Origin: Anolis carolinensis
Lineage: Eukaryota
Assembly (NCBI RefSeq): GCF_035594765.1
Contig: NC_085843.1
Coordinates: 151,815,971-151,879,970 of the forward strand
DNA length: 64,000 nucleotides
Direction: 5' to 3'
Shown: positions 19,116 through 23,314 of the stretch, piece by piece
Layout of the letters: every line of letters begins with the position of its first letter
Numbering within the stretch: the first letter of the stretch is position 1
Notes under the pieces: generated by a model
Told to the model about the DNA's origin: nothing
Databases searched by the model: none
The model's input: only the letters and a program-made list of their open reading frames with translations
Position numbers and translations under genes: made by a program

Positions 19116-20387
19116 ATGCAACAAAAGCAAAACATTCCCATCACATGCACCAGCTGTGGCATGTTCCGCTTTTTCACACAAAAACTAGACAACTACATCT
19201 GCTCCAAATGCAAACAGATGACTCTGATGGAGCAGAGGATCCAACAGCTCGAGCACCGTATTAAGACCCTTAAGGACATTCAGGCACTCGAGCTCTTCTT
19301 GGACACTGCACAACACGCTGCTGTAGATCAGCAGCCTGCATCACACCAACACCACCAAGACCATGATCAGGAACCTTATGGGGAGATCAACTCAAAGGTA
19401 GACAACCCTCAGGCTTGGAAGGAGGTCACCCATAGAAGGAGACGCAGGACCAGGCAGCCTCCACAGAACTCCTCTGCTCAGCTGCATTTACACAACAGAT
19501 TTGAAATTCTTACATCATTAACATACAATCAGGAAACACATCTTGTGGAGGACCACAGTTTCTTAGATACCACTCAGTGGACCATCCTGGATCAATGCGC
19601 AGGGGATAGCCCTGACAGGGACAGTGCATCACCACAGTCACACTTATGTAATCATGCAAATGCTCCACCCCCAATCATAGACCAGGAGCAACAGGAACAT
19701 CCTTGGGAGAGTAATGGGCTCTCGGATGTATCTCAATGGATTGTCATTGATGAATGCACTGGGGATGTTGAGGAGGAGGACAACACTTTACACCTACATG
19801 ATTCACTTCAACAGGAACACTCTTCAGGGGACATACACACTGTCTTGCACAAAAGGGACCCTGTCAATCCTCAAAGGAAACAGGTCTTGGTAGTAGGTGA
19901 CTCCCTCCTTAGAGGAACGGAAGCCATCATTTCCAGACCGGATGGGATGGCTCGAGAAACATGCTGCCTCCCGGGGGCAAAAATACACCATATCACTCAG
20001 AGGCTCAGCAGGCTCCTAAAGCCCCATCACCCTCCCCACCTTATGTTGATTCATGTAGGTACCAATGACACCGCTAGGCATACTTTTCAAAAGATCACAA
20101 ATGATTTTCGAGCTCTGGGAACAAAGCTAAAACTGTATAATGTACATGTGATCTTTTCATCCCTCCTCCCCGTTGTAGGACATGGCTCTACAAGGGCCGG
20201 AAAAATAGTACAGGTCAATAACTGGCTCAGAAAATGGTGTCAAGAGGAGCATTTTGGCTTCCTTGACCATGGTCTACTCTTCCAAGAGGATGGACTACTG
20301 GCAAGCGATGGGGTGCATCTCACACAAGTAGGAAAACATCTTTTTGCACACAGACTCACAAACCTCATCAGGCGCACTTTAAACTAA
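19116..20387 (+). CDS. CR1 ORF1 protein: N-terminal CxxC-x14-CxxC zinc finger, coiled coil, basic patch, C-terminal SGNH/GDSL esterase domain
   Basis: CTSC...[19 protein letters not shown] heptads; HRRRRRTR; esterase blocks VVGDSL, HVGTND and DGVHL. Confidence 0.93.
20378..20384 (+). other. Candidate -1 ribosomal frameshift slippery heptamer T_TTA_AAC at the ORF1/ORF2 overlap
   Basis: ORF1 ends ACT TTA AAC TAA, giving an X_XXY_YYZ heptamer in the correct phase. The -1 frame is ORF2. Confidence 0.6.
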
Positions 20388-20578
20388 ATACACTGGGGGA
20401 GGGGAACAACAGCCTGGCGAACACTATATTACCCACGACCACAGGGAACCGCCGTAAGGCTAAACGGAGGGCTGCACAAACACAGCAAGGACCAAGTACA
20501 GAGAGCACAATAATCCCAAATAAACAGTTCGAGGGGAGGTCACAGGGGCTTACATGTCTTTACACTAATGCTCAGAGC

Positions 20579-23314
20579 ATGGGAAATAAGCAAGACGAAC
20601 TCCAACTCCTAGCACAGCACCACACATACGATGTCATAGGCATCACTGAAACCTGGTGGGATGACTCCCATCACTGGAATTTAACCATTGAGGGCTATAA
20701 CCTCTTTCACATAAATAGAACAAAGGGGAGAGGAGGGGGAGTAGCTTTATATGTCAAAAACAGTTACGTTGCAGAAGAAATGCAAGACTGTAATCCGGGA
20801 AACCAGCTTGAAAGCATCTGGATAAGAATCAAGGGAACCGGGACTCAAAAAGATCTTGTCGTGGGTGTCTACTACAGACCTCCGAGTCAGGATGAAGGAC
20901 TTGATGAAGCCTTCTGTCAACAGCTGACCAAACAGGCACAAAGAAGAGATATAGTAGTCATGGGCGATTTCAATTATCCCGATATCTGCTGGAAAACAAA
21001 CTCAGCCAAGAGTACAAAGTCCAACAAATTCCTCACTTGCCTTGCAGATAATTTTATGGTCCAGAAGGTAGAAGAGGCAACAAGGGGATCAGCAACTCTT
21101 GATCTAATCTTAACAAATGTGGAAGACCTGATCAATACAGTTGAAGTGGTTGGATCCTTAGGGGCAAGTGACCATGTGCTCCTGCAGTTTGCAATACAAA
21201 GGAATGCTGAAACTAAGACAAGTCAAACACGCATTCTGGACTTTAAGAGAGCTGACTTCCAAAAAATGAAGGAATTACTGAGCGGCATTCCATGGACGCC
21301 GATATTAAAAAACAAGGGAGTTAAGGATGGATGGGAGTTTTTCAAAAGTGAAATACTCAAGGCGCAAATGCAAACAGTGCCAACAAAGAAGAAAAATAAG
21401 ACAAGTGCAAAGAAGCCAGAATGGATGTCCAAAGAACTTCTAACTGAGCTAAAGCTCAAAAGTGACATGCACAAGAAGTGGAAAAGGGGAGAAATCACCA
21501 AAGAAGAATTCAAACGTATAGCCAACTCCTGTAGGGAAAAGGTTCGCAAGGCTAAAGCGCAAAATGAGCTCAGGCTTGCCAGGGACATAAAAAACAACAA
21601 AAAAGGTTTTTTTGCTTATGTTGGTAGAAAAAGGAAGAAAAAGGAGGCGATAGGGCCACTGCAAGGAGTAGATGGGGTGATGGTGACAGGGGATAGGGAA
21701 AAGGCAGAACTGCTTAATGCCTTCTTTGCCTCGGTCTTCTCACAAAAAGAAAGCCATCTTCAACCTCAGCAACATGGAATGGACGAAGGATTGGGGGAAA
21801 TCCAACCCCAAATAGGGAAACAAGTTGTCCAGGAACACCTGGCCACTCTAAACGAATTCAAGCCCCCAGGGCCAGATCAGCTACATCCAAGAGTATTGAA
21901 GGAACTAGCGGAAGTTATTTCAGAACCACTGGCAATCATCTTCGAGAGTTCTTGGAGAACAGGAGAAGTCCCAGCAGATTGGAGGAGGGCGAATGTGGTC
22001 CCTATCTTCAAGAAGGGAAAAAAGAACGACCCAAACAATTACCGTCCGGTCAGCCTCACATCAATACCAGGCAAGATGCTGGAAAAGATCATTAAGGAAG
22101 TGGTCTGCAAACACTTAGAAACAAATGCGGTCATTGCTAATAGTCAACACGGATTTACCAAAAACAAGTCATGCCAGACTAATCTGATCTCTTTTTTCGA
22201 TAGAGTTACGAGTTGGGTCGATACAGGGAATGCCGTGGATGTAGCATATCTAGATTTCAGTAAGGCCTTCGACAAAGTCCCCCACGACCTTCTGGCAAAC
22301 AAACTAGTAAAATGTGGGCTAGACAAAACTACGGTTAGGTGGATCTGTAATTGGCTAAGTGAACGAACCCAAAGGGTGCTCACCAATGCGTCGTCTTCAT
22401 CATGGAAAGAAGTGACAAGTGGAGTGCCGCAGGGCTCCGTCCTGGGCCCGGTTCTGTTCAACATCTTTATTAACGACTTAGACGAAGGGTTAGAAGGCAC
22501 GATCATCAAGTTTGCAGATGACACCAAACTCGGAGGGATAGCTAACACTCCAGAAGACAGGAGCAGAATTCAAAACGATCTTGACAGACTAGAGAGATGG
22601 GCCGAAACTAACAAAATGAAGTTCAACAGGGACAAATGCAAGATACTTCACTTCGGCAGAAAAAATGGAAATCAAAGATACAGAATGGGGGACGCCTGGC
22701 TTGACAGCAGTGTGTGCGAAAAAGATCTTGGAGTCCTCGTGGACAACAAGTTAAACATGAGCCTACAATGTGATGCGGCAGCTAAAAAAGCCAATGGGAT
22801 TTTGGCCTGCATCAATAGGGGAATAACGTCTAGATCCAGGGAAGTCATGCTCCCCCTCTATTCTGCCTTGGTCAGACCACACCTGGAATACTGTGTCCAG
22901 TTTTGGGCACCGCAGATGAAGGGAGATGCTGATAAGCTGGAAAGCGTCCAGAGGAGGGCAACTAAAATGATTAAGGGTCTGGAGAACAAGCCCTATGAGG
23001 AGAGGCTTAAAGAGCTGGGCATGTTTAGCCTGCAGAAGAGAAGGCTGAGAGGAGACATGATAGCCATGTACAAATATGTGAGGGGAAGTCATAGGGAGGA
23101 GGGAGCAAGCTTATTTTCTGCTGCCCTGCAGACTAGGACACGGAACAATGGCTTCAAACTACAGGAAAGGAGATTCCACCTGAACATCAGGAAGAACTTC
23201 CTCACTGTGAGGGCTGTTCGGCAGTGGAACTCTCTCCCCCGGGCCGTGGTGGAGGCTCCTTCTTTGGAGGCTTTTAAGCAGAGGCTGGATGGCCATCTGT
23301 CGGGGGTGCTTTGA
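20579..23314 (+). CDS. CR1 ORF2 protein: APE endonuclease plus reverse transcriptase (true coding start probably upstream; frame open from 20267)
   Basis: APE motifs GITETW, YYRPP, MGDFN, LDLIL, SDH. RT motifs [37 protein letters not shown]. No stops or frameshifts. Confidence 0.96.

Follow-up and report, generated by a model that had tools for sequence, protein, structure and literature searches.

The stretch of DNA analyzed here, referred to as the window, consists of 64,000 nucleotides (nt) from Anolis carolinensis (NC_085843.1, positions 151,815,971 to 151,879,970, forward strand), and at about 17915-23414 on its plus strand lies a full-length long interspersed nuclear element (LINE) of the CR1 type. 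By its domain layout, 5' subunit array, and 3' octamer tail, as read from sequence, the element is an ordinary CR1 LINE (Table 1). The product of the first open reading frame (ORF1) was recognized as an esterase (Pfam Lipase_GDSL_2, E 1.6e-10; named homologs agree) and shares 99% identity with a protein whose named source is Anolis carolinensis, and Pfam assigned Exo_endo_phos and RVT_1 domains to ORF2. The 3' end carries an 8-bp repeat tail, without poly-A, which we take to be a hallmark of CR1. The same domain layout, 5' array, and 3' octamer tail are found in the vertebrate canonical CR1s with an esterase ORF1, according to the available parts of PMC13343379 and of PMC3905857 (ZfL2-1 esterase). 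When the flanks of the ORF1-ORF2 junction were matched to the genome with any seven letters allowed between them, 1,603 places were obtained, which constitute the young family to which the window copy belongs. The features of this junction make it probable that ORF2 is produced by a programmed -1 ribosomal frameshift at U_UUA_AAC, yielding an ORF1-ORF2 fusion.

Table 1. Parts of the CR1 element, in window coordinates
Feature	Position	Strand	Remarks
5' region	17915..18947	+	3.9 tandem copies of a 267-bp unit
ORF1	19116..20387	+	423 aa; C-terminal SGNH/GDSL esterase domain; last residues T-L-N, then stop
Slippery heptamer T_TTA_AAC, candidate -1 shift site	20378..20384	+	In ORF1 phase
-1 frame linker ahead of the endonuclease	20384..20548	+	Stop-free; ATG-free in the young family; sequence and length poorly conserved
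ORF1 stop, directly 3' of the heptamer	20385..20387	+	TAA in the window copy
G tract, candidate stimulator	20395..20404	+	10 nt past the heptamer
AGG codon	20537..20539	+	Mostly ATG in older lizard families; four codons before the first APE motif
ORF2 proper, APE endonuclease and reverse transcriptase	20549..23314	+	Intact; first ATG at 20579
3' tail	23382..23414	+	4.1 copies of the 8-bp unit ATTCTATG

Organization of the ORF1-ORF2 junction

In the window copy, ORF1 ends ACT TTA AAC TAA, with TTTAAAC in ORF1 phase directly followed by the stop, and ORF2 occupies the -1 frame relative to ORF1, which is open over 20267-23314. The original prediction, a -1 frameshift coupling ORF1 to ORF2, had been made from the letters of this copy. 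Its coordinates for the heptamer, the stop, a CTG at 20393-20395, the G tract (GGGGGAGGGG), and the first ORF2 ATG were all correct, the -1 frame was open from 20267 as it had said, and its estimate of a fusion of about 1400 aa agrees with the 1,399 aa (423 + 976) that the potential fusion would have. The heptamer is the only in-phase X_XXY_YYZ sequence in the 423 codons of ORF1; nine occur in 911 codons of ORF2, corresponding to a chance of about 1% per codon. Contigs from four presumed-RNA runs spanned the junction without a joint or indel, a result that rare spliced or edited forms could escape.

The first in-frame ATG of ORF2 (20579) was located inside the first APE motif, again as predicted. 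The Pfam Exo_endo_phos match starts just after it, at profile position 17, and in a weak alignment to exonuclease III (1ako, E 0.53) the Met encoded at 20579 corresponds to residue 11 and the Asn four residues before it to residue 7. Asn7 of exonuclease III is presumably catalytic, and a start at 20579 would clip the first APE motif.

Conservation of the heptamer beyond coding need

In the young family, TTTAAAC was present in 100 of the first 100 copies listed (of 1,603), followed by TAG in 70 of these and by TAA in 30. The youngest subfamily has changed the ORF1 stop from TAG to TAA, whereby the stop was kept and the -1 frame residue altered. Two older lizard families, B and C, were found by means of an upstream peptide pattern, and 30 copies of each were then collected with queries ending short of the junction. 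In both families every base of the heptamer was the commonest letter of its column, with TAG as the stop in one family and TGA in the other; the last heptamer base in family B was C in 18 of 30 copies and T in 7 of 30, both of which satisfy X_XXY_YYZ. A metagenome scan yielded 45 loci, 17 of which contained the ORF1 end and were mostly bird-type by protein likeness. TTTAAAC was found in 12 of these 17, T_TTA_AAA in 1, T_TTA with a decayed last codon in 3, and an insertion in 1.

Codon choice at the junction was compared in 68 distinct copies, found with queries from which the last four ORF1 residues had been removed. The exact heptamer was present in 30 of the 68, and many of the others were decayed or out of register. 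The terminal Leu codon was TTA in 44 of the 48 copies that read Leu, and the terminal Asn codon was AAC in 35 of 39; at Leu positions 8 and 5 codons upstream, TTA was used in 2 of 48 and 2 of 53 copies, respectively. Among 12 lineage representatives, which were hand-picked partly for intactness and are 32-77% identical upstream, the wobble base before TTA was T in all 12, under the residues A, T, S, and C, and the stop differed (TAG, TAA, or TGA). Two upstream invariant Leu residues were encoded by 4 and 6 codons in these representatives, and the terminal Leu by TTA alone. In ORF1 of the window copy, TTA makes up 6 of 45 Leu codons.

A depletion at position -3 of residues that have no T-ending codon (2/48 versus 59/336, P 0.009) was discounted, as positions -6 and -7 were equally low. 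No copy had 1 or 2 extra bases in the heptamer, and no natural in-frame fusion lineage was found among nine longer proteins, which is a weak test. One decayed copy (L193:1292-4129) joins ORF1 and ORF2 in a single 945-aa frame via a short deletion upstream of the heptamer; it is broken further on and is uninformative on function.

The supplement of PMC13343379 provides about 1,000 CR1-group consensuses, of which the first 400 letters each were covered, and a search of these for the motif plus a stop counts positives only. There were 23 matches, 18 of them at the ORF1 end (flanks judged by eye) and from 12 species, namely, halosaur, bowfin, coelacanth, bullfrog, bearded dragon, alligator, crocodile, elephant shark, sawfish, stingray, catshark, and dogfish. 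Three of the remaining five matches were in AT-rich L2 or Rex1 elements, and two were in the 5' regions of shark CR1s. Twelve upstream esterase motifs, some picked after those rows were seen, gave eight matches in the same material; six show the junction, all six with the heptamer, and of the other two, one ends before the junction and one is unrelated. At the protein level, 63 ORF1 homologs were obtained, with named sources that include lizards, turtles, alligator, birds, and frogs; of the 42 whose alignment extends to the query end, 39 finish in L-N. A profile search gave 150 listed matches, 76 of which reached profile position 322 at least; 52 of the 76 finish L-N, some at only 30-39% identity. 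The residue preceding L-N took 10 different values in 48 clusters. Distant protein queries against the Anolis genome returned matches from the young family only.

More distant esterase ORF1s (P0171, P0192, P0191, and P0175) have the ends G-N, K-N, G-F-C, and F-L-K-D-F, which, at the protein level only, are compatible with other canonical slippery heptamers. DNA for distant ORF1 relatives with E-L-N, K-N, or G-N ends was not found in viral or prokaryote collections, and neither G/A_TTA_AAC nor G_GGA_AAC followed by a stop gave a junction match in the part of the PMC13343379 consensus table that was covered.

Comparison of these elements showed that the heptamer is conserved beyond what the protein needs, in that its silent sites are frozen across vertebrate CR1s. 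The original prediction had called for such a comparison between lineages, and the heptamer, its phase, and the G tract proved to be conserved in lizard, bird-type, crocodilian, shark, coelacanth, frog, and fish CR1-group elements, the G tract about 10 nt past the heptamer holding the same position in the lizard, bird-type, crocodilian, and shark elements. The signal at the junction is genuine, is conserved at the nucleotide level over deep divergences, and matches a -1 frameshift site in both form and phase.

Frameshifting weighed against other routes to ORF2

In the copies in which the stretch between the heptamer and the endonuclease is free of stops in the -1 frame, it measures 99, 141, 150, 165, 168, 171, or 252 nt (the last in L066), all of them multiples of 3. 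When the commonest codons of families B and C were read through this linker, there were no stops in the -1 frame versus 3 and 3 in the other frames. Moreover, a stop closes the -1 frame 1 or 2 codons before the heptamer in 10 of 15 bird-type loci, which argues for entry into ORF2 at or after the heptamer and against an ORF2 that starts upstream of it.

Several observations weigh against frameshifting, those on start codons being taken up below with the alternatives that they favor. The APE start was located in 31 copies and was in phase with the heptamer in 14 (9 of 14 with an intact heptamer), the others being decayed. No third-position excess was seen in the linker of families B and C (P 0.52 and 0.30), in contrast to the tail of ORF1 and the start of the APE; since it is open and lacks this excess, the linker appears to have been kept open and not kept in sequence. 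Parsimony on 41 copies, a noisy measure, counted 3, 4, and 11 steps at the first, second, and third wobble sites, respectively, versus a mean of 8.5 upstream. Three ORF1 proteins (P0006, P0007, and the shark protein P0095) end E-L-N, which at the protein level only is incompatible with U_UUA_AAC; the available part of PMC5009743 lists G_UU(A) as a variant in equine arteritis virus. The motif with a stop also occurs away from the junction, in the two shark CR1 5' regions mentioned above and, as TTTAAAC followed by TGA, in each 267-bp 5' unit of the window copy (18001, 18268, 18535, and 18802); no ATG lies upstream of the latter copies, so they are not in a reading frame and represent either chance or a second role for the motif. 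Finally, no stable or covarying downstream stem was found with folding programs that predict no pseudoknots: the z-scores were 0.42 to 0.80 for the window copy and -2.2 to +1.2 in 15 copies (two lengths each), the consensus structure of 8 bird-type loci had 3 pairs only, and a three-tier quadruplex was absent, the tract having only a two-tier pattern.

The original prediction thus fared differently in its parts: the conserved heptamer, phase, and G tract support it, and the pseudoknot or G-quadruplex for which it had proposed folding the downstream region did not appear, pseudoknots as such being beyond the programs used. A hairpin about 27 nt past the heptamer occurs in two loci (L056:1237-1310 and L073:2491-2564), with no consensus structure across the 8 bird-type loci. 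We considered a long-range duplex between the G tract and a C/T tract close to the end of ORF2 (about 23230, -24.3 kcal/mol) and rejected it, since the element's other G-rich 15-mers score alike and family B reaches only -3 to -16 kcal/mol; this duplex was matched by 5 of 300 codon shuffles and by 1 of 300 synonymous resamplings.

The alternative that survives best, although we regard it as rather unlikely, is termination-reinitiation, in which the ribosome would resume translation no more than a few bases from the ORF1 stop, at an ATG or a near-cognate such as the CTG at 20393, and make a separate ORF2 protein. The heptamer and G tract would then be a pause or ribosome-holding signal, and reinitiation may accompany frameshifting in ATG-bearing lineages. 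In 8 of 15 bird-type loci the -1 frame has an ATG no more than 3 codons from the stop, and a UAAUG overlap was found in L072 and in three shark consensuses (ScyCan_CR1-1a, SquAca_CR1-17a, and SquAca_CR1-6c), UAAUG being the sequence used by SART1 according to the available part of PMC3894237. In each of the three lizard families, CTG or GTG was the most frequent codon at 20393, and replacement of the L1 ORF2 ATG by any sense codon is tolerated (work cited in the part of PMC1965478 available). Such a restart leaves unexplained why an exact X_XXY_YYZ lies in ORF1 phase and why the -1 phase is fixed; L1 spacers range from overlap to about 1 kb (PMC5381506, seen in part). Its candidate start codon also shifts between codons 1, 2, and 3 past the stop, and it is missing altogether in some lineages: in alligator CR1-1b and CR1-6a and in sawfish CR1-7, ATG and near-cognate codons alike are absent from the -1 frame ahead of the G tract, and L062 has no start codon near the stop (TCG AAG). 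The young family has no ATG near the stop and no SART1-type AUG overlapping or adjoining it, as is present in some relatives, and its sole candidate is the CTG, in a weak context. The strong Kozak context that had been ascribed to this CTG did not hold, the A at -3 (20390) being private to the window copy: C was found in 28 of 29 sister copies and T in 1 of 29, and the contigs of all four sequencing runs covering the junction have C. The G of the NTG codons is, moreover, the first base of the conserved purine tract, and NTG may be a by-product of that tract. In all, no start codon position was common to all lineages; the constant feature is the heptamer, and the start codons vary. The reinitiation rival named in the original prediction is therefore weaker in its CTG form, given the private A and a codon that varies by lineage, and stronger in general, given the ATGs near the stop elsewhere. 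Frameshifting and reinitiation could coexist in some lineages.

It is far less probable that ORF2 starts well downstream, at an ATG four codons before the endonuclease or at 20579, reached by scanning or on a shorter transcript; the heptamer and G tract would then be DNA or RNA elements of a different sort, such as a promoter or protein-binding site. An ATG at the codon equivalent to 20537 was found in 19 of 30 family B and 12 of 30 family C copies, and a downstream start would also fit the lack of amino acid constraint on the linker and the recurrence of the motif plus stop in 5' regions. This codon is AGG in 30 of 30 young copies, yet the young family reached its 1,603 copies; a start at 20579 would be preceded by two out-of-frame ATGs, besides the loss to the first APE motif; and an untranslated spacer would not need to be stop-free and in phase. 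The downstream ATG of the older lizard families has been lost in the young family. Least credible of all is that the heptamer has no signal role and simply follows from shared ancestry and a conserved L-N C terminus, for although the elements are related, so that counts are not independent, and many copies come from two lizard families, the neighboring invariant Leu residues vary in codon where the terminal Leu does not, TTA is a minority Leu codon in ORF1, and the wobble T persists under different residues.

Proposed mechanism, related systems, and other features

Under the frameshift reading, the ribosome would slip by -1 at the U_UUA_AAC that closes ORF1, with tRNA-Leu and tRNA-Asn each slipping back one base, and would produce the 1,399-aa fusion alongside a more abundant free ORF1 protein. 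On mammalian ribosomes, U_UUA_AAC ranks with the heptamers most prone to shifting, as stated in the part of PMC5009743 available. The pause might be provided by the adjacent stop together with the G tract 10 nt downstream, a candidate frameshift stimulator; as no conserved stem was found, we read this tract as probably a linear, factor-bound or weakly folded element. The same paper describes stops that aid the shift (at one plant-virus site), linear protein-binding stimulators 11-15 nt away, and quadruplexes that stimulate the shift in synthetic constructs. The variable basic linker would serve as a tether. No protease domain was found in the fusion by Pfam, and the fusion would stay uncut and be drawn into the particle through its ORF1 part, like Gag-Pol.

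The closest parallels are the coronavirus ORF1a/1b junction (infectious bronchitis virus) and retroviral gag-pol, with which CR1 shares the identical heptamer U_UUA_AAC in the upstream phase, a polymerase in the -1 frame, and the expectation that the fusion is a minor product (PMC5009743, in the sections available). CR1 differs from these sites in that no pseudoknot or stem was found 5-9 nt downstream and that it has instead an adjacent stop and a G tract at 10 nt, in that there is no protease for the fusion, and in being an element without long terminal repeats (non-LTR), not a virus. Among APE-type non-LTR elements, Dictyostelium TRE5-A and TRE3-A need a -1 frameshift for ORF2, according to the legend of a review figure (PMC5911963, seen in part); these belong to another clade and host and have another type of ORF1. 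In arterivirus nsp2 and in cardioviruses, the 3' stimulator lies 11-15 nt past the shift site and can be linear RNA (PMC5009743, same sections). The arterivirus motif binds poly(C)-binding protein and a viral protein, whereas the CR1 tract is G-rich and factor binding is only proposed for it. SART1, with UAAUG coupling, and L1, with reinitiation, resemble CR1 in having a bicistronic LINE RNA and a scarce ORF2 protein, and UAAUG occurs in four CR1 relatives. The young CR1 family, unlike SART1, has no ATG near the stop, and the free variation of spacer length in L1 contrasts with the CR1 junction, where a slippery heptamer locks the phase.

How LINE ORF2 is translated is an open question according to the available parts of two reviews (PMC3894237 and PMC5381506). 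The first lists UAAUG coupling, reinitiation, internal ribosome entry sites, and 2A for LINE ORF2, and frameshifting is not among the mechanisms in that part. In the parts available, the main text of the 2026 survey PMC13343379 does not discuss the junction signal, PMC5009743 does not mention CR1, and PMC3708506 does not mention frameshifting. CR1 frameshifting was not found in a full-text literature search, the classic CR1 papers (Haas 1997 and Kajikawa 1997) being outside its reach; the novelty of the site is uncertain, and the first CR1 descriptions may already mention it.

Frameshifting at this junction would be a new variant of a known mechanism, and it makes the open question directly testable, since a phase-locked slippery site allows a test that is both precise and cheap in the LINE clade with the widest distribution among vertebrates. 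The young family is abundant and nearly uniform, so a pooled ribosome-profiling or proteomic signal should be detectable. If frameshifting does operate, the active CR1 enzyme would be a fusion with the ORF1 esterase and not a free ORF2 protein, ORF2 annotations from the first ATG would be wrong, and engineered CR1 assays would have to retain the junction. The junction would also be a natural example of U_UUA_AAC functioning with no evident pseudoknot.

Elsewhere in the element, the region ahead of ORF1 (17915-19115, about 1.2 kb) contains no ATG, and its 267-bp units are 99% alike, resembling the promoter monomers of L1. No clear target-site duplication was seen at the 3' end of the element. 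A 21-bp direct duplication lies at 17873-17913, immediately before the 5' end, and a second copy of the young family, 5'-truncated to its 3' end and 94% identical, is located at 4992-5309.

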